A stretch of 64,000 nucleotides of DNA from Eubacteriales bacterium (lineage in GTDB: Bacteria; Bacillota; Clostridia; Oscillospirales; CAG-272): assembly GCA_045128275.1 (NCBI GenBank), contig JBGVRH010000063.1, positions 1,739 through 65,738 on the forward strand. Reading direction: 5' to 3'. Within the stretch, counting starts at the first letter, position 1. Every line of letters begins with the position of its first letter. Of this stretch, positions 3,177-50,478 are shown piece by piece. The notes beneath the pieces were generated by a model. The model was not told the DNA's origin and did no database searches. It was given only the letters and a program-made list of their open reading frames with translations. Both the position numbers and the translations under genes were made by a program.

Positions 3177-4598
3177 ATGGTCTTTTCCTCCACCATATTC
3201 CTCTTCGGGTTCCTCCCCCTCTCCCTTCTGATCTACTATATCATGCCGCTGAAGGGGCGGAATCTGGCTCTGTTCCTTTTGAGCCTGGTCTTCTACGGCT
3301 TCGGAGAGCCTACCTACATCCTGGTGATGCTCTTCTCGGTCACGGTGGCCTACCTCACGGGCTTCCCCATCGGCAAGTACCGCGAGAGCGCCCCCAAGAA
3401 GGCAAAATTCTGGCTGATCCTGTCGGTCTGCCTCAATTTGGGCATGCTGCTGTTCTTCAAGTATACCAACTTCTTCCTGGAGAACCTGGCCCTGATCCCC
3501 CCGCTGGCGGATGTGATCCACCCCATCGAGGGGCTGACCCTGCCCATCGGCATCAGCTTCTACACCTTCCAGATCATGTCCTACTCCATCGACCTCTATC
3601 GGGGCAGCACCGACACCCAACGGAGCTATATCTCCTTCGGCGCGTACGTGGCCCTTTTCCCCCAGCTCATCGCGGGCCCCATCGTCCGCTACCGCGACGT
3701 GGACGATCAGCTCATCACCCGCGAGCATTCGGTGGACAAGTTCTCTACGGGCGTCAGCCGCTTTACGGTGGGCTTTGCCAAGAAGATCCTGCTGGGCGAC
3801 TCCCTGGCCGCCGTCTACGCCTACCTCGGCACGGCCTACGCGGTAGAGCCCACCACCCTGACCGCCTGGCTCATGGTGCTGACCTACACCCTCCACATCT
3901 ACTTCGACTTCGCGGGCTACTCCGACATGGCCATTGGCCTTGGGCGGATGCTGGGCTTTGAGTTTTTGGAGAACTTCAACTATCCCTACCTGGCCTCCTC
4001 CATCACCGACTTCTGGCGGCGGTGGCACATCTCCCTGTCCTCCTGGTTCAGAGAGTACGTCTACATCCCCCTGGGCGGCAACCGCAAGGGCCTCTCCCGC
4101 CAGATCCTCAACATGGCGGTGGTGTGGTTCCTCACGGGCTTCTGGCACGGTGCGGCCTGGAACTTCATCCTGTGGGGCGTGTTCTACTTCGTGATCCTAG
4201 CCCTGGAAAAGCTTTTCCTTCTCAAGTGGTTCGAGAAGACCCCCGTCACCCGTGCCCTGGGCCATGTCTGGGCCCTGCTCCTCATCGGGATCGGCTGGAT
4301 GATCTTCGACCACACCGACCTCACCGAGGCCTTCGCCGTCATCGGCGGTCTCTTCGGCATCGGTACGGTGGGAGCCGCCTCCCCCGTGGTGGGCTACGAG
4401 CTGCTCCGCGCCCTGCCGCTCCTGGCCGTTTCGGTGATCGCCGCCACACCCTGGCCCGCGAGACTCTTTGCCAAGCTGGAGGCCAAGCGCCCCGCCGTGG
4501 CCTTCCTCCGTCCCGTCATGATCGCCGCCGCTCTGCTCCTGGCCGTGGCCTACATGGTCAGCGGCACCTTCAGCCCCTTCCTCTACTATATCTTCTAA
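3177..4598 (+). CDS. MBOAT-family membrane O-acyltransferase (AlgI/DltB-like)
   Basis: Polytopic membrane protein with ISFYTFQ...FPQLIAGPI...FWRRWHISLSSWFREYVYIPLGGNR, including the conserved MBOAT His region. Confidence 0.85.
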   Translation: MVFSSTIFLFGFLPLSLLIYYIMPLKGRNLALFLLSLVFYGFGEPTYILVMLFSVTVAYLTGFPIGKYRESAPKKAKFWLILSVCLNLGMLLFFKYTNFFLENLALIPPLADVIHPIEGLTLPIGISFYTFQIMSYSIDLYRGSTDTQRSYISFGAYVALFPQLIAGPIVRYRDVDDQLITREHSVDKFSTGVSRFTVGFAKKILLGDSLAAVYAYLGTAYAVEPTTLTAWLMVLTYTLHIYFDFAGYSDMAIGLGRMLGFEFLENFNYPYLASSITDFWRRWHISLSSWFREYVYIPLGGNRKGLSRQILNMAVVWFLTGFWHGAAWNFILWGVFYFVILALEKLFLLKWFEKTPVTRALGHVWALLLIGIGWMIFDHTDLTEAFAVIGGLFGIGTVGAASPVVGYELLRALPLLAVSVIAATPWPARLFAKLEAKRPAVAFLRPVMIAAALLLAVAYMVSGTFSPFLYYIF

Positions 4599-7179: not shown

Positions 7180-7362
7180 ATTTACGCTCCATTCAAATAA
7201 AAATTGAATTACAGTTTCAATCACATGATTTTTGGCGGTTGAAAACCGATTGGATTCAGAGCAATGACTTTTTACCTCAACACCCTGTTCCTAATATTCG
7301 TCATTTTCAAGCATATTATAACACATTTTATATTAAATGTAAATATTAGTGAAGAAAATAAT

Positions 7363-7615
7363 CCCGATTTTTTAGCCTTTCGTTGTGTCCAGTGTAGCAT
7401 AGGTGTCTCGCAGATGTAAACGTAAAAAAATATCACCGAAAAAAGAAAATAGATATAGAACAGCCAGGTAGCGTTACCTGGTTTTTTTCTATATCCATAA
7501 GCAATATTTTTTTGTGTACTGAAAGCAGTCACGACCTCTCGTTGACATCTGCACACCTCACTCGGAATGAACGAGATTACCTCCCGACCTATGCTCCCCT
7601 GACCCTGCCGAAAGG
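7363..7615. repeat. ~250-bp structured module, copy 1 (second copy at 39021-39275)
   Basis: Colinear similarity to 39021-39275. Shared blocks: CCTTTCGT..GTGTCCAGTGTAGCATAG, a central hairpin plus T-run (7463-7487), GCAATATTTTTT.GTGTACT, and CTCTCGTTGACATCTGCACA.CTCACTCG..CTCCCGACCTATGCTCCC.GACCCTGCCGAAA. Confidence 0.7.
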
Positions 7616-8005: not shown

Positions 8006-8770
8006 TCAATCCGACAACGCCTGGTAAGGAATGACCTTGTCAACCTCGTCCATGGAGGAGAAGAACGCCACGAAACCAAAATCAACGGTGTCGCCGTCCT
8101 CAGCCGAATTTGCCAGACCGAAGCGCAGATATCCCAGGTAGCCGGCTTCGGCATCGTAGCAGAAGGCAAGATCGGAGATATCGATCGTCACATACGCCCA
8201 GTCACCGTCGGTGGCACGGAACGAATAGTCCACGTTGTCACCGTTTCCATGGGCCGCATGACCCTCGGTACCCATGTACAGATTCAGACCTTGGTTGTAC
8301 TTGGAACGGTACTTAATAACCAGAATATTATCCACGGGCGTGTCTTCTCGGATCAGGTAGAAGTAGGGATCCCATACGTTATCGGAACCGTAGCGGAACA
8401 GAGCGGTCAGGCTGCCGTCCTCGTTCAACGTCAGACCGCCGAAATCGCTCCAGTCCTGCTGTTCGTTGTTGGCGGCCTTCAGAATATCCTCTGTTGCCAG
8501 GATCGTGGTGGCGTATTGTCCCACCTCTTCCAGGGTCGGGTGGTAGATCTCCTCTTTTGCCTCGGTCGTTTCCTCTTCGGTGGTGGCCTCCTCGGTGGGT
8601 GCCTCAGTGGTAGCCTCTTCGGTGGGTGCCTCGGTTTCGGGGGCTTCAGTGGTGGCCTCCTCGGTGGGTGCCTCGGTAACAGTGGAGTCGGTGGTCTCGG
8701 GAGCTTGGTCGCATGCTGCCATGCACAGCAGAACGGACAGGGCAAGGGCCGCAATGATCCAATGTTTCAT
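8006..8770 (-). CDS. lipoprotein with TEAPTEEAT-type linker repeats, function unknown
   Basis: Start trimmed to MKHWIIAALALSVLLCMAAC (lipobox) with an AGGTGAAAAG RBS. Acidic Thr/Glu/Ala/Pro repeats, then a globular C-terminal domain. Confidence 0.7.
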   Translation of the reverse strand: MKHWIIAALALSVLLCMAACDQAPETTDSTVTEAPTEEATTEAPETEAPTEEATTEAPTEEATTEEETTEAKEEIYHPTLEEVGQYATTILATEDILKAANNEQQDWSDFGGLTLNEDGSLTALFRYGSDNVWDPYFYLIREDTPVDNILVIKYRSKYNQGLNLYMGTEGHAAHGNGDNVDYSFRATDGDWAYVTIDISDLAFCYDAEAGYLGYLRFGLANSAEDGDTVDFGFVAFFSSMDEVDKVIPYQALSD

Positions 8771-9238
8771 ACTTTTCACCTCGCAATTGCTTATAGTGGT
8801 TTCATCATACCATACTTGGAACACAAACACAACCGTTTTGCGATCTTCACACTTTACCGAACTCATCCGCAAGCACGGTCTCACCGTCTTCCTCTGTATG
8901 ATATCCGATATTATAGCATAAAACATACATTTTTTTCAAGTGGTTTTTGTAAAGAATACTGACTATATATTCCGTATGTGCGAATCATTTCGCCGCCCAC
9001 CTTTCGTGCGCAGTCAACGGTCTTTTTCTCTTTTCCCGGCCCTTCGTTCCAAGCTGCTATGGCCCCCAACGCTTGTAATGCGGGCAGTATATCCGTCTGT
9101 GACGGCTCGATCCGTCATACGTATTGACTTTTCGTGGGAAAAATGCTATACTGTATTTGGAAAATCCAATATCGTTTCTGTTGATACGATATTGGAACAG
9201 CCTTGTCAATCAAACGCGCAAGGAAAGGAGCAATCCCC

Positions 9239-11907: not shown

Positions 11908-14900
11908 TCACGGCTCCTCCACCGTGAAGTCCACCTGCAGCACCACGCTGCCGTCGGCACCGCGGATGACGGCCTTGTACTCTCCTGCGGGGAGAACATC
12001 GTACATATGGCCCACCTGCCAGTTGCCGCGGTTGTCGCCGGGGATGTCGGTCAGCTTGAAGGTGGAGCCTGCCACCACCGTGGCGGTGGCCCCGGGATAG
12101 CCCTCAAAGCGGGCCCAGTAGATGCTGGCATCCTGGCCGGGAACGAAATTACGGGGATAGATGCAGATCTGGTCGGTGGCGATGGTGCCCCCCGCCGTGA
12201 TCCAGATATCCTCGCCTACCTTGTAGGTCTCCTTGTCCAGCTCGATGCGGCGGGTCTCGTCGGGTTCTGCGGGGTTCTCGGAGTCCTGCGACTTGGCGGT
12301 AACCGTGAAATTGACCTGTGCCACCACGGCTCCCGTATCGTCGCGGAGCACCACCTTGTACTCGCCCACGGGGAGCATTTCGTACATATGGCCCACCTGC
12401 CAGTTGCCGCGGTTATCACCGGGGAGGTCGGTCATCTTGACGGTCACCCCGCTGGGAATGACCACCGAGCCGTCCGGGTTGCCCTCAAAGCGTGTCCAGT
12501 AGATGCTAGCATCCTGGCCCGGGACGAAATCCACGGGGTAGACCGCCAGGGTGTCGGTCTTGGGATTGGCCACGGGAGTGATGAGAATGTCCTCGCCCTG
12601 CGCGAAGGCGGTCTTGTTCAGCGTCAGCTTGCGCTCGATCACCGTGACGTTATCCTCGTATTTGGCCTCGATGAGATCCCCCACCCAGATGGGATTGGTG
12701 AAGGCGAAGCCGCCCATGGCGTCGAAGTCACCGTACAGGGAGGACTCGGAAAAGACCTCCACGCGGAAGAACTGACCGTCCTGCACTTCGATCTCGCGGG
12801 TCAGCTCAAACAGGTGGGTCTCCCCGTCCTTCTCGCTGTCAAAGAGGGTCTCCACTATGCGGGCTTGGTAGGCCTCCTCCACGTTCCCCGTCATGGTGTA
12901 GGTGTAGAGGAGGATCTTGGTCAGGGGAGCGCCCTGATCGGCCACGCGGAGGGTAAGGGTGGCCTTGCCGCTCTCGGGGAGGGAGAGGGCATCGCCCATG
13001 CTCACGCCGTCGATGTCAAAGCGAATCTCGGCGCCGTTGGTGCCGTAGAAGTGGCCGTTTTTGAGGGCATCCAGCACGGCGGCGGGGGTGACCTCCTCCA
13101 GCAGGAGGGCGTTACCCGTGCGGCTGACGATCTCTTTGCCGTGGCCGTCGGTGTTGCTGATGCCGTAGTAGCGCTGCTCACCCTTAAGGTTGTAGCGATC
13201 CCACCACTCAAAGGCCTTTTCGGTGGCTCCCTTGGTGATGCCGTTGGCGTAGGAATCGGCGTTGTAGACCTCAATGCCCGTAAAGCCCTTATAGACGAAC
13301 ACCTGCGTCTGGTCAGCCCCCACACCCGGCCACTTCCACGAGCCTGTGTTGGAGAAGTAGAAGGGATGGGCGGGGAAACAGAGGCCTCCCTCGGAAATGA
13401 TCTCGTTCATGAGCCTCTGCCACTCGGCGGCATCGGGGCGGTAGGCGGCCATGATCTCCCACATATGTCCCGTATGGCCCCCCGAATGGCGGTGGGGCAC
13501 GCCGTACTCCAGCATATGGCCGTACTCGGTGGTGATCTCGTTGGCGGTGATGGCCAGGAAATTCTGATAGTGGGCTACGGCCTGAGAGATGGGGGAGGTC
13601 TGCGTCACATCATAGTTGTGGTCGGTAGCGATCATGAAGGCGTGGCCCTTACCGACGGCGGTGCCGAAGTTATCGGTCAGGGAGTCTCGGCCGTCGCTGA
13701 GTGTGCTGTGGGTATGGGCATCCCCCACGTAGTAGCCCAAGCCCGCCGCCACCAGCGGCAGGGACTCGGCCATGACCGTCAGGTCGCTTTGGGACAGAAG
13801 CTTCAGGTCAAAGAGCATACTGCCGCCATCGTTGATCTTCAGCTTGAAGGTGACGGGAGCGGTCTCGCCAGCCTTGACGGTGACGCTTTGCGCCGCCTCG
13901 GCGCAGGAGACCGCCAGCAAGGGATGGCTCAGGGAGAGCTTGAAGACCCGATCAGTATCCGAGTCGTTGTGGAGGGTAGCGGAAAGCTCCACATCCTTCC
14001 CTGCCTTGGCCTCGCCACTCATCTTCAAGTCGCTGAAGTAGTATTCGGCGGCGGGGTGATAGGGACGAAGGGGAGGCACGGGATCACTCAGCCACGCCAC
14101 GGTCTTCTCGTAGAGGGCGGTAACGTCGGCGGGATCCATCGCCTTGTCGTGGATGGCCGCACCCGTGAAAACGGTGGGAGGGGCGGGGTAGTCGGTAATG
14201 ACACGGTTATAGCCCACGTCGGCACCGATGACGTAGATGAAGGGGGACTCGCCAAAGGCGAAATCGCCTGCCTTGATCGTGCCCTGCTCTACACCGTTGA
14301 TATAGAAGCGGAGCATCTTGCGCTCGGCGCTGTATACGCCCACCAAATGGTACAGCTCGCCCACCGTAGCCTCCTCCTTGGCGAGGACGGAGGTATAGTT
14401 GCGGGTACTGCTGTCGAACTGCTGGAAGAGGAATTTCCCGTCCTCCAGAGCCAGACCGAACATACCGTTCTGGGTGGCCGAGAAGAGGGCCTGGAAGCCG
14501 TCGCCCAACGTTTCAGTGAGCTGGACTGTCAGCTCGATGGTGTAGCCGTCGGTGATGGAGGCTCGCAGGGTCTCATCCTCGGCGTAGGCCGAGAGGTCAA
14601 GGGCAGCGGACTGTCCCTCGGCGGCGGTCTTGCGGTAGGCGGGGATCGTGTAGGTCTTGCCCTTATGAGTGACCTCACAGGAGCCGATCTCGCCACCCGC
14701 CAGCATGGTGGCGGCGTAGCCTACGGCATCCCCCAGGGTCTTGCCGTCAAAGATGCCCATCTGCGCCAGCACGCCGTCCTTGGGGGTATACTCCACGTTC
14801 ACCGAGGGGTCGGGGATGTGGATGCCGTCGGGCTCGGGGGCTGTGTCGGAGGGGGTGGATCCATCGGGGCTTGACTCCGCAGGATCCGTTTCGTCGGGAT

Positions 14901-15081
14901 CGGTGTCTGCGGGGAGCGTATCGGGGGCGGTGATGCCCTCGGACTCGGTGGGGATCTCGGCTGCTGTGGTGTCGGGGGCGGTATCCGTGGGTGTCGGGGT
15001 GTCCTTACAGGCTGTGAAGAGAAGGAGCACCGTCAGGCCGAGCAGGAGGACGAAAATGAGATGCTTTCCAAGCCGTTTCAT
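11908..15081 (-). CDS. large secreted lipoprotein: LamG-like domain, PHP (CehA/McbA-type) metallohydrolase, duplicated C-terminal Ig-like modules
   Basis: Lipobox LLFTAC. GDAHTHSTLSDGRDS...ATDHNY PHP motifs. Two near-duplicate C-terminal modules (IYW.RFEG...PGDNRGNWQVGHMY..LP.GEYK). GAAAGGAG RBS. Confidence 0.85.
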   Translation of the reverse strand: MKRLGKHLIFVLLLGLTVLLLFTACKDTPTPTDTAPDTTAAEIPTESEGITAPDTLPADTDPDETDPAESSPDGSTPSDTAPEPDGIHIPDPSVNVEYTPKDGVLAQMGIFDGKTLGDAVGYAATMLAGGEIGSCEVTHKGKTYTIPAYRKTAAEGQSAALDLSAYAEDETLRASITDGYTIELTVQLTETLGDGFQALFSATQNGMFGLALEDGKFLFQQFDSSTRNYTSVLAKEEATVGELYHLVGVYSAERKMLRFYINGVEQGTIKAGDFAFGESPFIYVIGADVGYNRVITDYPAPPTVFTGAAIHDKAMDPADVTALYEKTVAWLSDPVPPLRPYHPAAEYYFSDLKMSGEAKAGKDVELSATLHNDSDTDRVFKLSLSHPLLAVSCAEAAQSVTVKAGETAPVTFKLKINDGGSMLFDLKLLSQSDLTVMAESLPLVAAGLGYYVGDAHTHSTLSDGRDSLTDNFGTAVGKGHAFMIATDHNYDVTQTSPISQAVAHYQNFLAITANEITTEYGHMLEYGVPHRHSGGHTGHMWEIMAAYRPDAAEWQRLMNEIISEGGLCFPAHPFYFSNTGSWKWPGVGADQTQVFVYKGFTGIEVYNADSYANGITKGATEKAFEWWDRYNLKGEQRYYGISNTDGHGKEIVSRTGNALLLEEVTPAAVLDALKNGHFYGTNGAEIRFDIDGVSMGDALSLPESGKATLTLRVADQGAPLTKILLYTYTMTGNVEEAYQARIVETLFDSEKDGETHLFELTREIEVQDGQFFRVEVFSESSLYGDFDAMGGFAFTNPIWVGDLIEAKYEDNVTVIERKLTLNKTAFAQGEDILITPVANPKTDTLAVYPVDFVPGQDASIYWTRFEGNPDGSVVIPSGVTVKMTDLPGDNRGNWQVGHMYEMLPVGEYKVVLRDDTGAVVAQVNFTVTAKSQDSENPAEPDETRRIELDKETYKVGEDIWITAGGTIATDQICIYPRNFVPGQDASIYWARFEGYPGATATVVAGSTFKLTDIPGDNRGNWQVGHMYDVLPAGEYKAVIRGADGSVVLQVDFTVEEP

Positions 15082-18794: not shown

Positions 18795-19120
18795 GGGTGA
18801 TGAAATCGTCATGCACGATGACCTCCGATCTTTGATCGGTAACTGAAATGTTTTTCCATAATCCTACGTGGAACGGTCCCGATGAAAATCGGGGCTGTTC
18901 TGTTTATACGGGGTGGAAAGAGAATTTCGATATCGAAAATGGATCGTGTGAAACGAGCCGTATGAAAGATTCTGAGGGCACAGAGAGGCACTTGGAAACG
19001 CCTATAAGCCTTACGGGAATAGGAAAAAAAGAAGAACCTAAGACAAACAACAGGCTATGCCATGTGTTCGTTTTAGGTTCTTATTGGCGGAGATGGGGGA
19101 ATGCCATTCATGTACACAAC
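18795..19120. repeat. junction module, copy A (others at ~32105-32294 and ~39800-40080)
   Basis: Shared blocks with copies B and F: GAAATCGTCATG, hairpin GGAAC.GTCCCGATGAAA.TCGGGGCTGTT, ACGAGCCGTA, hairpin AAGAACCTAAGACAAACA...TGTTCGTTTTAGGTTCTT, then TGGCGGAGATGG. Confidence 0.7.
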
Positions 19121-19139
19121 ACCCTGTACTCCTTAAAAT
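19024..19139 (-). ncRNA. candidate ~115-nt transcript ending in a tRNA-Ser acceptor-like 3' segment (or att scar)
   Basis: Minus strand has TTGACA (19169-19174), 17 nt, TACAAT (19146-19151). Then ...GGAGTACAGGGTGTTGTGTACATGAATGGCATTCCCCCATCTCCGCCA, the AAGAACCTAA hairpin and a U-run. Confidence 0.35.
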
Positions 19140-19205
19140 GGCTATATTGTATCACAGAAATCCTTCCCTGTCAACAGATTCTTCCCGCCGTCTCCCCGCG
19201 GGGAA

Positions 19206-19925
19206 TCACTCTTCCGCTTGCCTTTTCTTCCGCATCGCCGCCGCGATCACGTCGTTCACATTGTCTTGCTTGATGGTAGCAGGATACTTCTTGACCATTT
19301 CAGCAAGCGCTGCCCTCGCAGCCCGTTCATCCTCGCTGAGCTCCACGAACAGGGCAGAGAGATCCTCGCAGGCAAGGATCCTCTCCAAAAGCCCCCGCGC
19401 GTGATCCGCCACGTTGTCCCAGCTGCCGTACAATTTCCGTACAGCCACGTCGATCATTTCATAGGTCAACGGCTTGCCGGCCATCTGTTGCTCGTACACA
19501 ATACCCGCTATGTCCGACAGATCCTTCTTGTACTGTCTTCCGGATACCAGCTTCATGGCTACAAGATACTCTGATCTGACGGTACGGATCTGGAGGACAC
19601 CTGAAAAGGTTTTGTAATACTCGGAGTACTGTACGATCTTCGGGGTATACGAGGCTGTCTTTTTGAAATCATCATTGACCCAACCGTTGGGCAAGCCGAA
19701 CTTATCACCCACGGCGTTGATTGCCTCTTTCATGATCGCGGGGGAATCGTAGCTAGCGTCAATATCGTAGGAAGAGGCACGAAACCCGTAATTGATCAGC
19801 ACCGACGCGCCCCCAACCAGGATCATTTCCGCAGGTGCTCCGTGCCCTCTTTTCCGATACTCCTTGGCGAGTTCTTTCAGGTAACCTTCCAAATTTTCCT
19901 TCGTAAAAGGAATATCAATAGACAT
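19206..19925 (-). CDS. nucleotidyltransferase-fold protein (AbiEii/DUF6036-like), putative toxin
   Basis: ILVGGASVLINYGFRASSYDIDASY resembles the GG.A...R.T.D.D NTase motif of AbiEii-type proteins. The ATG at 19925 (GTGAGG RBS) overlaps the stop of the upstream HTH gene by 11 nt. Confidence 0.65.
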   Translation of the reverse strand: MSIDIPFTKENLEGYLKELAKEYRKRGHGAPAEMILVGGASVLINYGFRASSYDIDASYDSPAIMKEAINAVGDKFGLPNGWVNDDFKKTASYTPKIVQYSEYYKTFSGVLQIRTVRSEYLVAMKLVSGRQYKKDLSDIAGIVYEQQMAGKPLTYEMIDVAVRKLYGSWDNVADHARGLLERILACEDLSALFVELSEDERAARAALAEMVKKYPATIKQDNVNDVIAAAMRKKRQAEE

Positions 19926-20481
19926 TTCGGACCTCACTTTCTACAATGTTGAATCGCAAAAATTCGGGGATCGCTTCCCTCTTGCATTTTTCCTTCGCGT
20001 CCGTATCCCCGTCCAATTTTGCCAGAAGCAGAACGTCTCTTGGATACAGCGGCTCCTTCAACGAATGGGTGCGGATCTCATCATATCTGGTGCAAAGCGG
20101 AATGCCGTGGATCCTGCTCAGATAGTCCACCATCGCCAGCAGATAGAAGGCTTCGGGATACCATCTCTTGCTCCAGTATTTGCTGATTTCATCCTTTTGC
20201 AAGGTCTCAACAATGAAATCCAGTTCATCCCGATCCTTCACAAGATGGCACACGTTACTTTTGAAAATCTCAAAATCCGGCCGCGGCTCCATAGAGTCCG
20301 TCAGAAGCTCCTCCATGGAAACGTTCAGGATCTTTGACAGCTTATATACTGTTTCCGCCGAGCATTTCTCCAGCCTTGTTTTGCCACGCACCACCTCAGA
20401 CAATGTTGTGTACGGAATACCGCTGAGCTTCGCGCACTGGTACATGGATATGTTTCTCTCTTTCAGCATGGCGTCAAGCAT
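19915..20481 (-). CDS. XRE-family HTH protein, putative antitoxin/regulator
   Basis: MLKERNISMYQCAKLSGIPYTTLSEVVRGKTRLEKCSAETVYKLSKILNVSMEELL is an XRE HTH. It carries a ~120-aa C-terminal domain and is translationally coupled to the NTase gene. Confidence 0.7.
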   Translation of the reverse strand: MLDAMLKERNISMYQCAKLSGIPYTTLSEVVRGKTRLEKCSAETVYKLSKILNVSMEELLTDSMEPRPDFEIFKSNVCHLVKDRDELDFIVETLQKDEISKYWSKRWYPEAFYLLAMVDYLSRIHGIPLCTRYDEIRTHSLKEPLYPRDVLLLAKLDGDTDAKEKCKREAIPEFLRFNIVESEVRNVY

Positions 20482-20587
20482 GGAATTCGCCTCCTTTCCT
20501 TGATATTATTATAACGCTTTTCCGTTATATTGTCAATAGTATCGGCGGATTTTGAGAAAATTATTGTTATGTGGGAAAAAAGTATAG

Positions 20588-20692
20588 AAAAAAACCCGAA
20601 CCGAACAGTAATGTATTCGATTCAGGTCCTTTTTGTGGCGGAGATGGGGGGAAGGCCGATCATGTACACAACAGTTCCTTCTCCCCTTTGGT
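20588..20692 (-). ncRNA. diverged copy of the promoter / tRNA-Ser-like 3' motif / terminator module
   Basis: Minus strand has TTGACG (20722-20727), 17 nt, TATAGT (20699-20704). Then ...GGGGAGAAGGAACTGTTGTGTACATGATCGGCCTTCCCCCCATCTCCGCCA, hairpin CCTGAATCGAA...TTCGGTTCGGG and T7. Confidence 0.35.
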
Positions 20693-20920
20693 AACCATAC
20701 TATAGCAGAAAACACGGGTCGCGTCAATGATCCCCCATGCGTTACCTATACCTGTACGAAGGCGGTAGGCTTCATGTGATATTGAGAGCAAAGCTCCTTT
20801 AACAGGATACGGTCTTCATTCCAATTTTTTTCGGTTCTGTATTGCATTTCCCCGTTCCCTATGCTATAATAAAGGGAGAGATCAAGCTTCAAAAGTCAAA
20901 TTTCAACGAAGGAGTAGCGC

Positions 20921-25600: not shown

Positions 25601-25705
25601 CTTTGCGGCTGTTTCGCGAGACGCGGGATCGAGGCACATATCTACATCGTATATACATAGGGTAATTACATATAGGAAAAAGCACCGCGCGCGGTGCTTT
25701 TCTGT

Positions 25706-25738
25706 TAGCGGAGATGGAGATAACGGTCATGTACACAG
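25706..25738. repeat. degenerate copy of the GCGGAGATGG...CATGTACACA core (site D)
   Basis: TAGCGGAGATGGAGATAACGGTCATGTACACAG preceded by hairpin GCACCGCGCGCGGTGC plus T-run. Confidence 0.5.
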
Positions 25739-25870
25739 CCAAAACTCTTTCGCGGTATAACCTACGGCATCATAAAACCGCGGCCATCCCCCATCCCACG
25801 GACAGGAGGACAGCCACGGTCTCATACCCAAACGGCCGATCATTCTCGGTCATTCACATAGAGCGGTCCA

Positions 25871-31731: not shown

Positions 31732-31765
31732 TCGCGGAGATGGGGAATGACGGTCACGTTCAACG
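31732..31765. repeat. degenerate copy of the GCGGAGATGG core (site E)
   Basis: TCGCGGAGATGGGGAATGACGGTCACGTTCAACG, related to the site A/B core. Confidence 0.4.
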
Positions 31766-32104: not shown

Positions 32105-32294
32105 GGTTTTCTTGTGGGGGCGCGGGGGTATTTGGGGGTCCTTTTGAGGGCACTGGCGGCACCGAAAAGCACTAGTATGCCTCTCGGATTAAAGGACAAA
32201 AAAAGAAGAACCTAAGACAAACATCAGGCTATGCCTAGTGTTCGTTTTAGGTTCTTACTGGCGGAGATGGGGGAATGCCATTCATGTACACAAC
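32105..32294. repeat. junction module, copy B
   Basis: GAGGGCACTGGCGGCACCGAAAAGCA...AAGAACCTAAGACAAACATCAGGCTATGCCTAGTGTTCGTTTTAGGTTCTTACTGGCGGAGATGGGGGAATGCCATTCATGTACACAAC is near-identical to copy A. Confidence 0.7.
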
Positions 32295-32313
32295 GCCCTA
32301 TACTCCTTAAGGT
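32198..32313 (-). ncRNA. second near-identical copy of the candidate tRNA-Ser-like transcript
   Basis: Minus strand has TTGACA (32343-32348), 17 nt, TATAAT (32320-32325). Same body and terminator as 19024-19139. Confidence 0.35.
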
Positions 32314-32379
32314 GGCCATATTATATCACAGAAATCCTTCCCTGTCAACAGATTCTTCCCACCGTCGCCCCGCGGGGAA

Positions 32380-32512
32380 TCACTCTTCCGCTTGCCTTTT
32401 ATTCCGCATCGCCGCCGCGATCACGTCGTTCATGTTGTCTTGCTTGATGGCAGCAGGATACTTCTTGACCATTTCAGCAAACGCTGCCCTCGCAGGCAAG
32501 GATCCTCTGCCA
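32380..32512 (-). pseudogene. truncated duplicate of the 3' end of the NTase gene (19206-19925)
   Basis: Near-identical to 19206-19390 but with an internal deletion between two CTCGCAG repeats. The copy ends abruptly and has no start codon or N-terminal part. Confidence 0.7.
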
Positions 32513-38179: not shown

Positions 38180-38965
38180 ATGAATACGATGGAAAAGCGT
38201 CGATATAAATTCGGACACAACGTGAATATCCCGATCACCAACGAACATCAGTACCATATGCATAACGAATATGAGCTGTTCTATTTTTTGGACGGTTCGG
38301 CACAGTACCAAATTGAAAATACGATCTATCCACTCTCGCGCGGCGATCTGCTTTTTATTCGCCCGCGTGTTTTCCATTGTCTTATCCCATTAAAGCAGAT
38401 CGAACATGACAGATATGTTATGCAATTCAAGGAGCAAAGTATTCCCGATCTGCTACGCCCTTCTATATGCGATCTCCCTGCGGTCTGCAATATATTTAAC
38501 GGGAGCCATGTACATCGCCAATTTGAGTACGTTAGCCGTATGAAGGAGCGAATCACAAGACCTGAATTTGAGCTTTTGCTGGATCATTTGCTCGGTGAGG
38601 TACTGTTAGAACTAAAATACATACCATTGACTCAACATCACCACCCGGTGTGCGGAAATGAAATGCTTACCGACATCCTTCGTTTTATCGAGCAGCATCC
38701 GAATGTTCCTATGGACATATCATCCATTTCGGAACGGTATTTTGTCAGCCGTTCGTGGCTGGAGCATACCTTCCGCAACCAAATGGGGATGTCCGTCACA
38801 CAGTACATTCGAGTAAAAAAGATCCTGTATGCCCAAGCGTTAATTCAAAACGGATTACCGCCTACGCTCGCTGCCCAATATTGTAGCTATGATAATTATT
38901 CGACGTTCTATCGAAACTACAAAAAAATCCTGCTTCATTCTCCCGAACAGGATCTTCCCCAATGA
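38180..38965 (+). CDS. AraC-family transcriptional regulator
   Basis: Cupin-like N-terminal part (HNEYELFYFLDGSAQYQIE) and a C-terminal AraC HTH (ISSISERYFVSRSWLEHTFRNQMGMSVTQYIRVKKI). Confidence 0.85.
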   Translation: MNTMEKRRYKFGHNVNIPITNEHQYHMHNEYELFYFLDGSAQYQIENTIYPLSRGDLLFIRPRVFHCLIPLKQIEHDRYVMQFKEQSIPDLLRPSICDLPAVCNIFNGSHVHRQFEYVSRMKERITRPEFELLLDHLLGEVLLELKYIPLTQHHHPVCGNEMLTDILRFIEQHPNVPMDISSISERYFVSRSWLEHTFRNQMGMSVTQYIRVKKILYAQALIQNGLPPTLAAQYCSYDNYSTFYRNYKKILLHSPEQDLPQ

Positions 38966-39020
38966 TTTTTTCGTATATTCGTAGATCTTCACGTTGTATT
39001 TACAGATCGGATGTAATCCT

Positions 39021-39275
39021 CCCCGATTTTTGCCTTTCGTCCGTGTCCAGTGTAGCATAGCTCTCGCAGCTGTCAACCGCTTAAGTGAAAAATTATCGCT
39101 GAAAAAAGAAATAATCATCGAGAAAGTCAAGTAGCAATACTTGGCTTTTTCTTTATCCCCACGCAATATTTTTTCGTGTACTCACAAAAAACTATACCTC
39201 TCGTTGACATCTGCACATCTCACTCGCAATGATCGTGATTCTCTCCCGACCTATGCTCCCCCGACCCTGCCGAAA
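39021..39275. repeat. ~250-bp structured module, copy 2
   Basis: Colinear with 7363-7615 (see that entry). Its central hairpin is CAAGTAGCAATACTTGG plus a T-run. Confidence 0.7.
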
Positions 39276-39322
39276 TGGCTCGCGAACAGCGAAGCTGTTC
39301 AGAAAATCGGGAGGTATAGAAA

Positions 39323-39793
39323 ATGAAAACCCAAAACCCAGTAAGAATCACCAACGAAAACGTAAGGATCACCAAGAACAACGTTCAGTATATCGGTGAA
39401 TGTATCGCACTGTCTGCTATCAAGAAAATGATGCGATTCGCTCATCATCCGCGTTCTCTGGACAAGCTGTATGTTGGTCTTGTAGAGGACATTTACGGCA
39501 ACCGATGCTACAACACGACCTTCTCGGACGGTTACGATCTGGCATCCGAAGTGATCTGCTTCCTTTGCCACTATATGGGTCACAATCCGGACGACCTGGC
39601 TTGTCAGAATCGTAAAGGTGAGTTACTGACTGTCCGTTTTGCTTGCTACCATCACGCCCTGCGGTACATCGAAAAAGAATATCTTTCCGGCTATAAGACC
39701 ATCAGTGTCGAAGAATGCTCGCCCGCCGATGCCTTTATCGACTTCGAGACCCAGTATGAGATTGAGGATTACACCAAGGATGATGCTCATTAG
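39323..39793 (+). CDS. hypothetical protein (156 aa) downstream of the structured module
   Basis: GGGAGG RBS 8 nt before the ATG. No family recognised by eye. Confidence 0.5.
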   Translation: MKTQNPVRITNENVRITKNNVQYIGECIALSAIKKMMRFAHHPRSLDKLYVGLVEDIYGNRCYNTTFSDGYDLASEVICFLCHYMGHNPDDLACQNRKGELLTVRFACYHHALRYIEKEYLSGYKTISVEECSPADAFIDFETQYEIEDYTKDDAH

Positions 39794-39799
39794 CTATCT

Positions 39800-40080
39800 C
39801 GTGAAGGAAATCGTCATGTATGACGGTAAGATCGAAATCTTTTTCCATAAGCCTACGCGGAACAGTCCCGATGAAAGTCGGGGCTGTTTTGTTTATACAG
39901 GTGAATATGGATCGTATAAAACGAGCCGTACAGACGATTCTAAGGGCATTGGCGGCACTCAAAAGCAACAGGATGCCTCTCATTGTGTAAATGGATAAAA
40001 AAAGAAGAACCTAAGACAAACACAGGCTTTGATATGTGTTCGTTTTAGGTTCTTATTTGGCGGAGATGGAGAGATTTGAA
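39800..40080. repeat. junction module, copy F, ending in the displaced tRNA-Ser 3' end (att site)
   Basis: Same blocks as copies A and B. It ends in TGGCGGAGATGGAGAGATTTGAA (40058-40080), identical to 52328-52350 inside tRNA-Ser. Confidence 0.75.
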
Positions 40081-40195
40081 TTATCAAATCCACATGATTT
40101 CCCGTAAAATAGGGTGAAAGCAAACGCCTGTTTTACCTTGTATATCAGCTCTTTTTCGGATTCTCCGTGAAATGCTGTACAATCAGAGATAAACG

Positions 40196-40238
40196 CATAA
40201 GGGGTATGATAAGGGGTATAGGGGGTATAATACCCCCC
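40196..40238. repeat. arm-type repeats ATAAGGGGTA near the left att site
   Basis: CATAAGGGGTATGATAAGGGGTATAGGGGGTATAATACCCCCC; related to 52221-52249. Confidence 0.55.
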
Positions 40239-40239
40239 A

Positions 40240-40383
40240 TCATTCGTTGCCGCTCCCCTCCGCGTTGCTGGCTTCCAAAAGCCTGCGGGCATAATCTATG
40301 AGTTCTTCAAGATTCTCTGTAGTTAAATCGCCGCGCTCGGCGGCTTCGCGGACGTACTGCATGAGCTTTTCTGCTTCTGTCAT
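40240..40383 (-). CDS. small hypothetical protein (47 aa)
   Basis: MTEAEKLMQYVREAAERGDLTTENLEELIDYARRLLEASNAEGSGNE with an AAGAAAGGG RBS. Below the ORF-track cutoff. Confidence 0.3.
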   Translation of the reverse strand: MTEAEKLMQYVREAAERGDLTTENLEELIDYARRLLEASNAEGSGNE

Positions 40384-40412
40384 GGTTTACCCTTTCTTAT
40401 GTTGCCCCCGTC

Positions 40413-40441
40413 TTGACAAACGGGTGAATTTGTGGTATAAT
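40413..40441 (+). promoter_or_regulatory. consensus sigma-A promoter for the candidate sRNA
   Basis: TTGACA (40413-40418), 17 nt, TATAAT (40436-40441). Confidence 0.55.
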
Positions 40442-40447
40442 AGCGGA

Positions 40448-40520
40448 AACACCCCGTTTTCTGATTGGTACTCATGTGGCGGGGTGTCCCCCCTGTATTC
40501 GCATTACAGGGGGGTTTTTG
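40448..40520 (+). ncRNA. candidate ~73-nt sRNA, convergent with the 91-aa gene and complementary to its translation initiation region
   Basis: Promoter, then hairpin 1 (AACACCCCG...CGGGGTGT) whose loop contains TTGGTACTCATGTG. Hairpin 2 is CCCCCCTGTA-TTCGCA-TTACAGGGGGG plus T5 (terminator). No ORF. Confidence 0.45.
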
Positions 40521-40523
40521 CTT

Positions 40524-40799
40524 TCACGCAATGGTGAAGCGGCGGGACTCGGTGGGCTTGGTGAACAGGGCGGCAATGTCGGGAACCGCCTTTTTCAGAG
40601 CGGCGGTGTCAAGGCGGTTGCTGGTGATCTTCGCCCAGCGGATCTTGATGGTTCCCGCCGTGATCTCCTCGACCCCTTGCGCCTCCATCTCGGCCTTGAT
40701 CTCGGCTTCAATGGCGGCCATCTGCTCGGCCAGCTCCTCGGCCTTGGCTTTCATGTGCTTCAGGGCTCTTGCCTTTGCGTTCATTTCGTTGGTACTCAT
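40524..40799 (-). CDS. coiled-coil phage-like protein (91 aa), function unknown
   Basis: AAGGAGAA RBS, Ala/Glu/Lys-rich helix. A consensus promoter on the minus strand lies at ~40950-40984 (TTGACA-17-TATAAT). Confidence 0.6.
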   Translation of the reverse strand: MSTNEMNAKARALKHMKAKAEELAEQMAAIEAEIKAEMEAQGVEEITAGTIKIRWAKITSNRLDTAALKKAVPDIAALFTKPTESRRFTIA

Positions 40800-41147
40800 G
40801 TGTGATTCTCCTTTGTGTTTTAGATTTGAGGAGGAGCGGCGCGGGGCTTTGCAATGCCTATGTGGGTCTCACTCGCATCCGTTCGCGCTCTTGCCTTGCG
40901 TTCTTGCTTTCCCTCTCGGTACTCCCGTCCGCCTTGGCTCATCCTGTGCTTATATTATACACTATTTCGCGTGTATTGTCAAGAGGTTTTTACACTTCTT
41001 TTCGTGTAAATCTGCACAAACATTTACATTTATTTTTGTGTATTTTTGCTCTTGAAATAGTGTATAAAATGTGGTATAATATGGGTACAATGGGAGAGGG
41101 GATGCCATTAAAAAAGCCCCCGCCCACAGAGAAACGGAGGTATAACC

Positions 41148-41357
41148 ATGCCATTGCAATACAAAATTGATGTTTTGGAGGCTCTAAAGGCTAAAGGATT
41201 CAACACCACGCGACTACGCCGTGAAAAGCTCCTTGCAGAAGGAACGATCCAAAAGCTACGGGAGCAAAAGCCGATCAATTGGGAGAACATCGCGCGTATT
41301 TGCGAAATGCTCAATTGCCAGCCTAACGATTTTTTGGAATACGTGGATAAACCATGA
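41148..41357 (+). CDS. small XRE/Cro-like HTH protein
   Basis: 69 aa. LLAEGTIQKLREQKPINWENIARICEMLNCQPNDFLEY matches the HTH_26-type short regulators. GGAGG RBS. Confidence 0.7.
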   Translation: MPLQYKIDVLEALKAKGFNTTRLRREKLLAEGTIQKLREQKPINWENIARICEMLNCQPNDFLEYVDKP

Positions 41358-41452
41358 CCACCACCAAGAGGGAGCGGGCGAACCGCTCCCCTTTTTGTTT
41401 GGTCTCCCTCTGAAAAAGTTAAAACAAATATAAAAATATTTGCCAAAACCTA

Positions 41453-41481
41453 TTGACAAATAGAATAATATGCGTTATAAT
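41453..41481 (+). promoter_or_regulatory. consensus promoter for hicAB
   Basis: TTGACA, 17 nt, TATAAT, about 20 nt upstream of the hicA RBS. Confidence 0.55.
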
Positions 41482-41503
41482 ATAATCACAGGAGGGAAAC
41501 CTA

Positions 41504-41701
41504 ATGAAAAGTTATTCATCAAGGGAAGTGATCGCCATGTTAAGGGCTGACGGATGGTATTTAGTAGCCACCGAAGGAAGCCACCACCACTTCAAGCATC
41601 CCGACAAAAAGGGAAAGGTAACGGTCAAGCATCCATGCAAGGACATACCGCCAAAGACCTTGAAGAGCATTTCGATCCAGTCGGGGTTACAGTTTCCGTA
41701 A
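41504..41701 (+). CDS. hicA: HicA mRNA-interferase toxin
   Basis: SSREVIAMLRADGWYLVATEGSHHHFKHPDKKGKVTVKHP is the canonical HicA pattern. Confidence 0.9.
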   Translation: MKSYSSREVIAMLRADGWYLVATEGSHHHFKHPDKKGKVTVKHPCKDIPPKTLKSISIQSGLQFP

Positions 41702-41743
41702 TCCCGGCTTCCCCCCTGTACTTCACGAAAGGAGAGCAAGAGC

Positions 41744-42157
41744 ATGAAGAAACCCGATCGTTACGTTTATCCCGCCGTGCTGACCTATGAGGACGGCTAT
41801 GAGATCGCCGTGACCTTCCCCGATCTGCCTGGGTGCGCTACCTCGGGAGAGACCGACACCGAGGCTCTGATGATGGCCAAAGAGGCGTTAGGACTCCATC
41901 TGTGGGGCATGGAGAATGACGGTGACGAACTCCCCGCCCCTTCGCCCATCCGCGATATTGAGCTGGAGGCGGGGGAAATCGTGGCATTGGTGGAGGTATA
42001 TATGCCCTCCGTCCGTCTGTCACAGGAAAACCGCTCCGTAAACCGCACCGTGACCCTTCCCGCATGGCTGAACGCACAGGCCATGGAGCGGGGTGTAAAC
42101 TTCTCACAGGTGCTACAGGACGCGCTTCGGGCGGAGATCAACAGACCCCGCGTATAA
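41744..42157 (+). CDS. hicB: HicB antitoxin
   Basis: YVYPAVLTYEDGYEIAVTFPDLPGCATSGETDTEALMMAKEALGLHL is a HicB N-terminal domain. RHH-like C-terminus (VNRTVTLPAWLN). Confidence 0.9.
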   Translation: MKKPDRYVYPAVLTYEDGYEIAVTFPDLPGCATSGETDTEALMMAKEALGLHLWGMENDGDELPAPSPIRDIELEAGEIVALVEVYMPSVRLSQENRSVNRTVTLPAWLNAQAMERGVNFSQVLQDALRAEINRPRV

Positions 42158-42235
42158 TACCCATAAAAGGGCGGCAGAAAATGCCGTCCTTTTTGCTTTG
42201 AAAACATGGGAAAAAGTCAGCCGTGAGCGGTTGCG

Positions 42236-42748
42236 GTATATAGTCAGAAATTTCAGGTTTTTTCAGGTTTTCTTCGCTTCGTCTTTGCTTCAAAGCGGTT
42301 CACCCTCCGTGCTTCGTCCGCGCTTCGATGGAATTTTTATATAGGCGAAAATGTCAACAAATGTCAACAATCGCGCCTTTTTTATACATGACCGCAAAAC
42401 TCAAAAACGCCCGTTTTTGTCATGGTCTTGATCGGTGCGCGTGAGCGGTTTTCTCTCGGTTCTCTCTCGCTTCAAAGCGGATCGGGGATAGTATTCCATA
42501 TAGGCGGAAATATTAGGTTTTCTTAGGTTTTGCGGATGTTGATGGTTGTCCTATATATGCGGAAACGGAAGGTTTTGTAAGGTTTTCGGCTGTGATCGGC
42601 TGTTCTATATAGGCGAAAATATCAACATTCGTCATCATTCGCGCCGCCGCGTACCGTGGGCGGTTGGTTCCTATATAGGCGAAAACCTCAACATTTCTCA
42701 TCATTTGTCCGCTCTGATTATCTGCGAAAGGTCAAGTTTTGTCAAGTT
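42236..42748. repeat. iteron-like array: 6-7 units of TATATAGGCGAAAA each followed by a unit-specific tandemly doubled word
   Basis: Units start at about 42236, 42337, 42496, 42550, 42604, 42670 and (42722). See the finding for sequences. Confidence 0.7.
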
Positions 42749-42945
42749 CTTTTTCCTCACTAAATCGGTGCGTTTCTCTCGCCTCGTTTTCGGTTTGAAG
42801 CAAATTGAAGAGCCTACCCCAATCACAAACTTCCGCAGTTTTCGGGTTCAACAAGGGATCCGCCGCCGTACTCTCTTGAGCGGTTGCCCTAAAGCTGAAA
42901 AAACATAACCGCCCTCGCAAGGAAGGCGGTCATGCTTATGAAACG

Positions 42946-43956: not shown

Positions 43957-43959
43957 AGC

Positions 43960-44394
43960 TTATTTGCAAAAATAATCGCGCATATTGCGTACCGTTATCG
44001 TCTGCTGCTTATTATCAAAAGCCACTCTCCAAGGCGTACCAGCCCTGTGCGTTTCCTGAACCAGATCCCACGCGGACTGATCTCCATACCGGCAGATAAT
44101 CTTGTCAATCACACTTTTGATTTCACCGATAATCGCAGGGGTAGGATACTGCTTGCATATGGGCGACGCACCATAATGGCGGTATCTCTCGTACACGATA
44201 CGAACTACGGGACCATAGTTCCAAACTTCAATCGTGTCCTGAAAAGCGATCTCACCATGTTCCTTTAATGCTTCTCCTTGGACGAAATACAGCATCTTCT
44301 GCAATTTCAAGTTTGAAACAGGTGTTCCGTTTTCATAAGAAACCGTAATAATATACTCCGCAATTTTCATAGCAGTAGAAGTATTAAAACGCAT
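43960..44394 (-). CDS. Panacea/DUF4065-domain protein (SocA/PanA-like antitoxin)
   Basis: SNLKLQKMLYFVQGEALKEHGEIAFQDTIEVWNYGPVVRIVYERYRHYG matches the DUF4065 core (L.KLLY.aqg......g.plf.d.ieAw..GPVv..vY). GGGAGG RBS. Confidence 0.8.
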   Translation of the reverse strand: MRFNTSTAMKIAEYIITVSYENGTPVSNLKLQKMLYFVQGEALKEHGEIAFQDTIEVWNYGPVVRIVYERYRHYGASPICKQYPTPAIIGEIKSVIDKIICRYGDQSAWDLVQETHRAGTPWRVAFDNKQQTITVRNMRDYFCK

Positions 44395-44702
44395 GAATCA
44401 CTCACCTCCCATTTCGTTAAAAAATAACACAAAATCATACAATTCGACACAGTACGGTAAAATCAATACCAACGAGTGTAATATAAAACCATACCATACT
44501 ATTATCATTTTGTCAAGTACATTATAACATAATTTTGTAAACATTTCTTGTCAACGCAATGAACAAATGCAATATTTTGTCATATCTTGGCAGATTTTTG
44601 ACACATTTGTGTCATTTTAGCCGTACGGAACAAAATGGGTCCCCACGGTACCGCGAGCCGTGCTATAATACAGTATAAGCAAAAAACAGAAAGGAGGTGC
44701 CC

Positions 44703-44853
44703 CATGTCCCATACCCCATCCCCTCGTCCCCTCTTCGGCAGAGAGAAGATCACCTCGTCGGTATCCCGCGTGGACACCTCTAACGTGGTCTGCGTGCCGG
44801 AGTTTGCCCCAAAGGCCAACGCAAAGGAAACGCAACGCCGAGAATGCCCCTAA
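44703..44853 (+). CDS. small hypothetical protein (50 aa)
   Basis: Strong AAAGGAGG RBS 6 nt before the ATG (MSHTPSPRPLFGREKITSS...). No family recognised. Confidence 0.3.
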
Positions 44854-50051: not shown

Positions 50052-50055
50052 CCGC

Positions 50056-50429: not shown

Positions 50430-50478
50430 TTGTTCAGCTCCTTTCAATTAACCTTGTTAACTTTTTTTCTTTTACCTA

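Follow-up and report, generated by a model that had tools for sequence, protein, structure and literature searches.

The question raised by this 64,000-nt stretch of contig JBGVRH010000063.1 from a Eubacteriales bacterium (the window, whose coordinates are used throughout) is what a recurring module is doing among its accessory genes: a short conserved sequence that ends like a tRNA-Ser gene and runs directly into a terminator hairpin. The original prediction offered two answers, tRNA-derived small RNAs or tRNA mimics on one hand and att-type sites or scars of a recombinase on the other. Our comparison with related loci, which carry L-numbers below, shows that the modules lie at the boundaries of units that have been shuffled against one another, and that the hairpin behind several of them is linked to a family of serine recombinases. 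The modules are probably att-type junctions of serine-recombinase elements, and of derivatives of these elements that have no recombinase, stacked at a tRNA-Ser gene. The second of the two predicted answers thus stands in substance, with a recombinase family now attached to it, although the sites are better described as junctions between stacked elements than as decayed scars.

Probable junction sites in the window and in related genomes

Module A (19024-19174, minus strand) comprises a promoter at 19146-19174, a core at 19085-19121 and a terminator, hairpin 1, at 19024-19084. Module B (32259-32348, minus strand) comprises a promoter at 32320-32348, a Shine-Dalgarno (SD)-like motif and the conserved block with its tRNA-Ser 3' copy at 32259-32295, behind which repeat and terminator analysis places hairpin 1 at 32198-32258. 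Their promoters, TTGACA-17-TACAAT/TATAAT with a TG extension, match the consensus at 11/12 and 12/12 positions and are followed on the minus strand by the SD-like AAGGAG, the body TGTTGTGTACATGAATGGCATTCCCCCATCTCCGCCA and a long hairpin with a T-run, in agreement with what had been predicted for the two sites. The similarity between them amounts to a 298-nt direct repeat of 94% identity (19024-19321 versus 32198-32495) whose upstream part takes in the 3' end of a DUF6036 nucleotidyltransferase gene; at B this gene is truncated and travels with the module (32349-32495, minus strand). Module C (20636-20727, minus strand) was rightly described as having a promoter, a related body and a terminator of its own: the promoter at 20699-20727 (TTGACG-17-TATAGT, 10/12) is followed by an SD-like motif, a variant core with one extra C (6 C, 20636-20673) and terminator C at 20588-20633, which differs from the A/B hairpin. 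The degenerate cores reported at D and E were recovered as well, at 25706-25740 (GTGTACATGACCGTTATCTCCATCTCCGCTA, then a terminator at 25675-25705) and at 31732-31765, both on the minus strand and both still backed by a hairpin and T-run. A search of the window with a family profile returned A, B and C at E 7e-20 to 6e-15, D at 0.002 and E at 0.012, and site D is conserved in L017.

Site F (40058-40080, minus strand) is a displaced 23-nt copy of the 3' end of tRNA-Ser(GCU) (TTCAAATCTCTCCATCTCCGCCA). The complete gene, called by ARAGORN at 52328-52419 on the minus strand with the 3' end ...TTCAAATCTCTCCATCTCCGCCA, is the anchor, or attB side, of the array. Behind F, as had been noticed, stands the hairpin of A and B (89-92% identity), here at 39995-40057 in repeat families D7 and D9 and annotated as a bidirectional terminator at the recombinase-proximal end of an element; two more repeat families, D8 and D14, tie the region behind the A hairpin to the region behind F. 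The 12-mer CCATCTCCGCCA has five exact copies in the window, and D and E differ from it by one mismatch each, which gives seven copies, all on the minus strand in the orientation of tRNA-Ser(GCU) and downstream of it. With up to one mismatch allowed, the window holds 10 matches where 0.54 are expected, a number reached in none of 100 shuffles. Read along the minus strand, the order is tRNA-Ser, a tyrosine-integrase island (island 1), F, hairpin 1 with a recombinase remnant, 7.8 kb of cargo, B, hairpin 1, E, 6 kb of cargo, D, 5 kb of cargo, C, a unit with a helix-turn-helix (HTH) gene and a nucleotidyltransferase gene, A, hairpin 1 with another recombinase remnant, and finally AraC and further genes. 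We read the stack between 52.4 kb and 18.8 kb as at least six such units in addition to a tyrosine-integrase island that is not related to them.

Scanning species-representative genomes and metagenomes for the pattern placed these sites in a larger family. About 45 further copies were found in roughly a dozen metagenome-assembled genomes (MAGs) of uncultured Clostridia/Eubacteriales (gut Clostridia) and in metagenome contigs. A genome has several of them, frequently at intervals of 1.7-6 kb, and arrays are also seen in L015, L017, L020 and L035; the viral collections searched gave no match to the core or to the recombinase, and a sequence-based literature search did not find the motif in any paper. 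Each copy consists of an invariant 22-nt block (TGTTGTGTACATGAATGGCATT), a 12-17-nt copy of the tRNA-Ser 3' end and, directly past the CCA, a terminator that varies from copy to copy. Two clades can be told apart, that of the window and a second, AT-richer one. In the window clade more than 20 copies have an unchanged 37-nt core despite strongly diverged promoter spacers, and a promoter matching at least 10/12 consensus positions is present in 21/27 copies, its -10 box ending 24-27 nt before TTGTGTAC, a score reached by 1.5% of random windows. The SD-like motif of this clade varies in sequence while its position stays fixed, 7-9 nt ahead of a TTG; both the TG-extended promoter and this position-conserved motif are under selection. 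The second clade retains TGTTGTGTACATGA and its spacing, and no recognisable promoter or SD was found in its copies. In both clades conservation ends exactly at the CCA, and the terminator stem begins +1 to +7 past it in 30/37 copies, with roughly ten unrelated terminator types represented. Two stretches of the body that had been taken as echoes of the tRNA (GGAG..TAC and AGGGTGT) fall within a portion that differs from one copy to the next, which counts against a tRNA-derived RNA.

Two unusual copies were also recorded. A strongly diverged one, which reads GGAGG, ATG TAG and a 14-codon open reading frame (ORF) ending CCT CCG CCA, delimits the HTH-nucleotidyltransferase unit on its left side, as a junction, in two MAGs (L005 ~575-630, L016 ~4345-4398). 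In L039 (8424-8590) a degenerate three-repeat CRISPR remnant (GTCGCCCCTCACGCAGGGGCGTAAATTGAAAC...) stands directly behind the core in place of the terminator.

That copies mark insertion boundaries in related genomes, a point the original prediction had proposed to check, is borne out by BLAST of the related loci against the window and by clustering of the flanks. Among 43 junctions, 22 upstream types and 14 downstream types occur in 31 combinations, and the sequences on the two sides of the core assort independently. L005 and L016 match the window from 20643 to 19024/19085 at 97-98%, and the homology sets in within core C (at 20643). In L016 it stops exactly at the CCA of core A (19085) with another terminator beyond, and L010, which has the nucleotidyltransferase half of the unit at 98%, likewise stops at 19085 in front of a different terminator. 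The neighbours of this HTH-nucleotidyltransferase unit differ among the three loci. L017 is collinear with the window from 27508 to 20600 and then diverts elsewhere, so that the unit is absent behind its C-type junction. L003, at 94% identity over 38782 to 40069, carries a regular module where the window has F, and L007 shares AraC, flank, hairpin and core with A below a different upstream promoter type. Units of the form terminator, genes and block travel whole, as seen for the HTH/DUF6036 unit and for an AlbA_2 unit in L003 and L020, both of which are without a recombinase. In the window the former spans 19085-20635 on the minus strand and consists of terminator C, a promoter, the HTH gene (19915-20481, minus strand), the DUF6036 nucleotidyltransferase gene (19206-19925, minus strand), a second promoter and the block of module A, both genes being identified by Pfam matches. 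The genes neighbouring the junctions are accessory cargo and include BspA-type leucine-rich repeat proteins, Xre and AraC regulators, lectin-like glycosidases and AlbA_2 proteins.

Recombinase remnants and the tRNA-Ser end

A phmmer search with a full large serine recombinase matched an ORF beside the module in L001 and another at 39630-39995 (plus strand) in the window at E 1e-6, and tblastn revealed that the opposite strand of the flank common to A and F codes for the C-terminal part of a Recombinase/Zn_ribbon_recom protein. The remnant at 39606-39902 (plus strand) is convergent with F and matches the L001 fragment at E 1e-22 (...MLISYLVKEIVMYDGKIEIFFHKPTRNSPDESRGCFVYTG); the second, at 18845-18937 (plus strand), lies behind hairpin 1 of A and was detected at E 1e-10 (EMFFHNPTWNGPDENRGCSVYTGWKENFDIE). 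From these two remnants it follows that hairpin 1 is the terminator of a recombinase gene that runs head-on into the module or the tRNA. Longer recombinase fragments lie behind module and hairpin 1 in L001 and L125, and fuller relatives show the order recombinase gene, hairpin and reverse complement of a complete tRNA, which is tRNA-Ser(UGA) in four contigs (L121-L124), tRNA-Ser(GGA) in L126 and tRNA-Gln in L127-L129. A sister recombinase family (L069-L074) has the reverse complement of a further tRNA-like 3' end in the same position. In every such case a hairpin of the family ..AACCTAAAnCGAAC...TTTAGGTT..TTTT stands directly past the CCA; the family seen past the CCA in L121-L129 also includes hairpin 1 and terminator C from the window, and complete tRNA-Ser(UGA/GGA) and tRNA-Gln genes abut the element hairpin there, as expected of specific targets.

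Resolvase, Recombinase and Zn_ribbon_recom domains are found in the relatives next to tRNAs (L122, L127-L129), which places a gene of the serine-recombinase family at the element end, a gene that in the window survives as remnants only. The elements of these relatives look like integrative mobilizable elements because they carry Mob_Pre or rolling-circle Rep genes. Taken with the position of the remnants, these arrangements point to a large serine recombinase as the likely enzyme, rather than to the tyrosine integrase that adjoins the tRNA in the window. In the regions L127 2101-4870, L129 627-3435 and L126 53-1162, the gene nearest the tRNA encodes a protein of ~360 aa that has Recombinase and Zn-ribbon domains but lacks the catalytic resolvase domain. 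A full serine recombinase of 528-541 aa precedes it in L127 and L129, and the pair may form a two-protein system like CcrA/CcrB or DsiA/DsiB. Another candidate, a serine recombinase upstream of the core in L007 and L011, was rejected as the user of the core, as the end of its element is ~180 nt short of the core on the upstream side and the element is of another family, one that lies beside another tRNA-like 3' end; analysis of this recombinase exposed the arrangement of hairpin and tRNA described above.

The identity of the last 12 nt with the 3' end of tRNA-Ser(GCU), on which the original prediction was built, holds in the window, but the shared part can be as long as 17 nt, and tRNA-Ser(GGA) gives a better fit than tRNA-Ser(GCU) to the 3' end found in the second clade. 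Copies of the window clade end in CCATCTCCGCCA and those of the second clade in CCTTCTCCGCCA. In L041 the tRNA-Ser(GCU) gene ends in ...CTCCTTCTCCGCCA, and a module 3 kb downstream on the same strand ends in those 14 nt; the terminators behind the tRNA and behind the module are homologous, and the genes between them encode two hydrolases and a PHP protein and no integrase. From this agreement it follows that the 3' end of the module differs by clade as tRNA-Ser does, and RGIG6481 provides a further case consistent with such tracking. In the modules of L041 and L046, 17 nt equal the 3' end of tRNA-Ser(GGA), and the copied part therefore spans the 3' strand of the T-stem, the 3' strand of the acceptor, the discriminator base and the CCA.

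These observations support a model in which the modules would be attR/attP-type junctions, created as serine-recombinase integrative elements inserted site-specifically, one after another, at the 3' end of a tRNA-Ser gene. The left part of each junction would belong to the newer element and consist of the far end of its cargo and the 22-nt block TGTTGTGTACATGAATGGCATT, which can be read as a P-arm half-site of the recombinase. Attachment half-sites of serine recombinases (attP and attB) are ~20-25 bp long, with imperfect dyad symmetry around a 2-bp crossover, and the length of the block fits such a half-site; in register with the corresponding block of the sister recombinase family, 9/15 positions are alike. 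The middle of the junction would be the 12-17 nt held in common with the tRNA-Ser 3' end, inside which the crossover should fall, and the right part the recombinase-proximal end of the older element, with its terminator hairpin past the CCA and its recombinase gene pointing back to it. An incoming element would bring its own copy of the tRNA end and restore the tRNA gene at each insertion, which would therefore stay a usable target behind which elements pile up. Older elements would then lose their recombinase and become cassette-like units of terminator, genes and block, possibly still mobile in trans. The model predicts that one tRNA-Ser isoacceptor of the hosts ends in TTCCCCC(C)ATCTCCGCCA (last 16-18 nt). 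Judged from sequence comparison, this recombinase family may well be the one that makes the junctions, the 22-nt block its putative binding arm, and the units without recombinase candidates for movement in trans.

Several observations weigh against this model. The recombinase of the window is reduced to remnants of ~30 and ~45 codons, and apart from the remnants found by phmmer no recombinase was present among 125 ORFs neighbouring the family loci. The closest relatives are split (L121-L124) or are ~360-aa proteins without the catalytic resolvase domain (L126-L129). Among the retrievable loci no element had an intact recombinase together with both ends, and the 22-nt block was not seen at the far end of an autonomous element. 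Dyad symmetry of the core is weak, the crossover dinucleotide could not be placed, and several of the terminator types past the CCA fall outside the AACCTAAA family. Some of the shuffling could also arise with no site-specific enzyme involved, through homologous recombination of the near-identical cores, and the strongly conserved outward promoter and SD-like motif upstream of the block, present in one clade only, are left unaccounted for by junctions alone.

Rival readings and the tyrosine-integrase island

The promoter is the natural starting point for the alternatives. The module could be a multi-copy, stand-alone small RNA gene (promoter, ~60 nt and terminator) whose C/U-rich single-stranded segment acts in trans, with the shuffling as a by-product of homologous recombination. 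The frequency and fixed distance of the promoter in one clade, set against the random windows, speak for such a gene, as do terminators that begin no more than 7 nt from the core and the many downstream genes that are convergent or have promoters of their own, which makes the unit stand alone; the A transcript also folds better than shuffled controls (z = -4), but most of this energy comes from the terminator. The core is present in metatranscriptome contigs, yet the core-to-flank depth there (3-17x) is no higher than in DNA contigs (3-35x), and the contigs break at the repeat, with DNA carry-over as a possible source. Promoter and SD-like motif are missing from the second clade even though the core is kept, no secondary structure is common to both clades, and the modules had no Rfam match, to tRNA or any other family, at the gathering threshold or at E up to 10. 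A search for complements of the core with up to 3 mismatches outside the module and tRNA copies gave only two imperfect matches, at 23996 and 52002. A small RNA gene would moreover leave the recombinase remnants, the tRNA-Ser identity block and the exact break at the CCA unexplained, and we consider it unlikely that this is what the modules are. The variant in which the RNA is tRNA-derived or mimics a tRNA fares no better: as the original prediction itself observed, no cloverleaf can be drawn, and the ARAGORN calls were limited to a tRNA-Pro and the tRNA-Ser within the window, with none at all in 19 family loci. In the minimum free energy fold the SD-like GGAG pairs with CUCC and leaves a GCCA tail free, like a minihelix, but the 5' partner is missing in the second clade, and a tRNA or tRNA-mimic fold was rejected. 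Transcription of the module is nevertheless plausible in the window clade because the promoter is conserved there; the outward promoter should give a transcript of ~110 nt that ends at the terminator of the neighbouring element, and a role for it as a trans-acting small RNA, or in antisense or interference against the neighbouring recombinase, is possible.

The same features could instead describe a translated leader, in which the SD-like motif drives a 3-codon mini-ORF (TTG TGT ACA TGA) whose stop overlaps the ATG of a 9-codon ORF, MNGIPPSPP, and a ribosome stalled at Ser-Pro-Pro with CCA in the A site masks the terminator and allows read-through into the next unit. Such a leader would account for an SD-like motif that changes in sequence and not in position, and for a 27-nt ORF whose length is kept despite strong divergence (MRCNAPSPP, MRGIAPSPP, MKGGTPSPP). 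The diverged left junction of L005 and L016 retains an SD, a start-stop mini-ORF and a 14-codon ORF ending Pro-Pro-Pro before the same terminator, terminator stems begin at +1 to +7, and the principle has precedent, as EF-P-dependent pauses are reported to influence terminator read-through (PMC5021804). The Pro codons, however, are a direct product of the sequence derived from the tRNA (..CCNTCTCCGCCA), and C, with 6 C, and E, with 4 C, are out of frame. Codon positions 1, 2 and 3 changed 7, 5 and 8 times, which gives no periodicity, and the last three codons are invariant with their third positions included. The second clade has neither SD nor promoter, and although one clade combines a leader-like ORF with a terminator, about one third of the downstream genes are convergent and at least six of the co-oriented ones have their own 11-12/12 promoter, which does not fit a ribosome-mediated attenuator; we regard this explanation as quite improbable. 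Very improbable, and largely refuted, is the proposal that the modules are decayed tRNA-Ser paralogues or inert leftovers of tyrosine-integrase islands at tRNA-Ser, without present function. It would explain why the last 12-17 nt equal the tRNA-Ser 3' end, and F-type leftovers of tyrosine-integrase islands, including tandem and inverted copies, are common in this bacterial group. These leftovers, though, carry the T-loop (TTCAAATCTCTCC...) and none carries the TGTTGTGTACATGA block, ARAGORN and Rfam detect no tRNA-like fold in the modules, and the invariance of the 37-nt core across copies with diverged spacers argues for selection or ongoing use.

A related candidate, "gene X", is an ORF of at least 99 codons into which the promoter and the first six codons run on in L118 and L119. 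It was rejected as a native gene start, since the 3' part of a small gene of no relation (P0002, L120) has been joined to these codons in frame. In L118 (1223-1519) and L119 the nucleotidyltransferase and promoter are those of A, and the mini-ORF is fused within the C-run to the 3' two-thirds of the small gene (homologue P0002); the allele is identical in two independent samples.

Island 1 (40081-52327), bounded by tRNA-Ser and the 23-nt repeat F, is an ordinary tyrosine-integrase island, the most recent insertion and unrelated to the modules. Its integrase (51048-52190, plus strand) has Phage_integrase and SAM_3 matches, and its other genes match HTH, IstB-like, HicB, SocA/Panacea and DarT-like families. 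Relatives of this integrase adjoin a tRNA-Ser gene at 15/20 loci, the other 5 being loci without a tRNA; the repeats of these relatives include the T-loop, the module core and block are absent from all 20 loci, and the integrase was rejected as the enzyme behind the junctions. Leftover tRNA-Ser 3' ends of such islands occur as an inverted pair around one common terminator in L053 (937-1010) and as tandem copies in L055 (409 and 634), which makes tRNA-Ser a general insertion hot spot in these bacteria. Within island 1, 41744-44394 encodes a HicB-like antitoxin and a SocA/Panacea-domain protein beside a protein with weak DarT similarity, a toxin-antitoxin-like or defence-like group, and three 43-nt direct repeats at 42335-42711 (TTTTATATAGGCGAAAATGTCAACA...; family D6) are iteron-like and may mark a replication origin or regulator-binding sites. 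Rfam at its gathering threshold reported the tRNA-Pro of the window but missed the tRNA-Ser(GCU) found by ARAGORN.

Other repeats were recorded in the window and related loci. A second conserved intergenic unit of ~260 nt (84-88% identity) occurs at 7357-7613 and 39015-39275 in the window and in L001 (5108-5401), L003 (241-494) and L017 (7482-7823); short plus-strand genes begin shortly behind it (near 7650 and 39323). The unit has a TTGACA-17-TACACT promoter-like site on the other strand and no Rfam match, and may be a common 5' leader or a divergent promoter region. A coding repeat with a 12-15-nt period lies at 8560-8694 in the ORF at 8006-8926, and two repeat pairs (103 and 67 nt) 381 nt apart lie at 11961-12542 in the lectin-like gene at 11908-15081; families D2, D5 and D10 cover both sets of coding repeats.

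Known systems and biological meaning

Stacked serine-recombinase elements at a tRNA-Ser gene would be a new member of a kind of system that is already known, tandem accretion of serine-recombinase elements at a tRNA-type gene, with the promoter as an extra feature. In the SCCmec and pseudo-SCC composites at rlmH (orfX), Ccr large serine recombinases insert at the 3' end of a conserved gene and regenerate the target, and the resulting arrays hold tandem elements separated by direct repeats, with recombinase-less units among them. The window resembles these composites in 3'-end insertion that regenerates the target, in tandem elements and in units without recombinase, and differs in host and target gene; the comparison of Ccr with the recombinase here extends to common Pfam domains only. 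An outward promoter is not known from SCC junctions.

Together with these composites, the closest parallel is provided by the ssrA islands of Dehalococcoides (McMurdie et al. 2011), which match the pattern of the window almost point for point. These islands lie in tandem behind one tRNA-like gene, bounded by direct repeats of its 3' end, and the end next to that gene carries a serine recombinase, a CcrB homologue, in reverse orientation; directly upstream of each repeat stands a conserved motif that cannot be aligned with the target gene, and some units lack integration genes and were read as cis-mobilizable elements (PMC3146451). Here the target is tRNA-Ser and not tmRNA, gut Clostridia are the hosts, the block upstream has a length of 22 nt and in one clade is preceded by a consensus promoter and SD-like motif, and the recombinase of the window is present only as remnants. 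A similar history has been described for integrative and conjugative or mobilizable elements (ICEs and IMEs) in streptococci, where integration, decay that keeps the att sites and new integration at the regenerated site yield tandem composites with cis-mobilizable elements (CIMEs) (PMC5704250; Pavlovic 2004 and Bellanger 2011 as cited therein). The three steps are those proposed here, whereas enzyme type and target site differ: the described cases mostly involve tyrosine integrases, and serine-recombinase IMEs usually insert inside genes and not at tRNA 3' ends (PMC5704250). Like such composites, the window has co-oriented units behind one target, separated by 3'-end repeats and some of them without an integrase. 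Integron cassette arrays are also reminiscent in their discrete units of variable order, with a recombination element at the 3' end, a homology break at its end and a toxin-antitoxin-like cargo unit. This reading was rejected, since there is no IntI tyrosine recombinase here, the only tyrosine recombinase of the window belonging to island 1, the core is not an attC-like imperfect palindrome, and the units have their own promoters and terminators.

A bolder extension, which we put forward as speculative and considerably more likely wrong than right, is that gut Clostridia possess an integron-like platform for gene capture that serine recombinases operate at tRNA-Ser. Units of 1.5-6 kb with no recombinase of their own would move in trans by excision and re-insertion, each with an outward consensus promoter and mini-ORF at its far end, and the ~110-nt transcript could silence the resident recombinase or otherwise control the array. 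If this were true, the cargo of the units would be defence or toxin-antitoxin-like genes, surface proteins and genes for glycan use, and the transcript would run toward the recombinase gene of the neighbour and use its bidirectional terminator.

In summary, the model of stacked serine-recombinase elements would explain the recurring motif as the joints within 33 kb of mobile units stacked behind a single tRNA-Ser gene. For serine recombinases, elements that insert at tRNA 3' ends and restore them have been documented less than for tyrosine integrases, and the family would widen this picture. Paired natural attP-like and attB sequences for related recombinases (tRNA-Ser UGA/GGA/GCU and tRNA-Gln) could be of interest as recombination tools. 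The signature TGTTGTGTACATGA-N15-TCTCCGCCA followed by a terminator would allow such stacks to be mapped in uncultured gut Clostridia, and the mapped stacks would in turn delimit the accessory genes for defence, surface proteins and glycan use that these bacteria carry.

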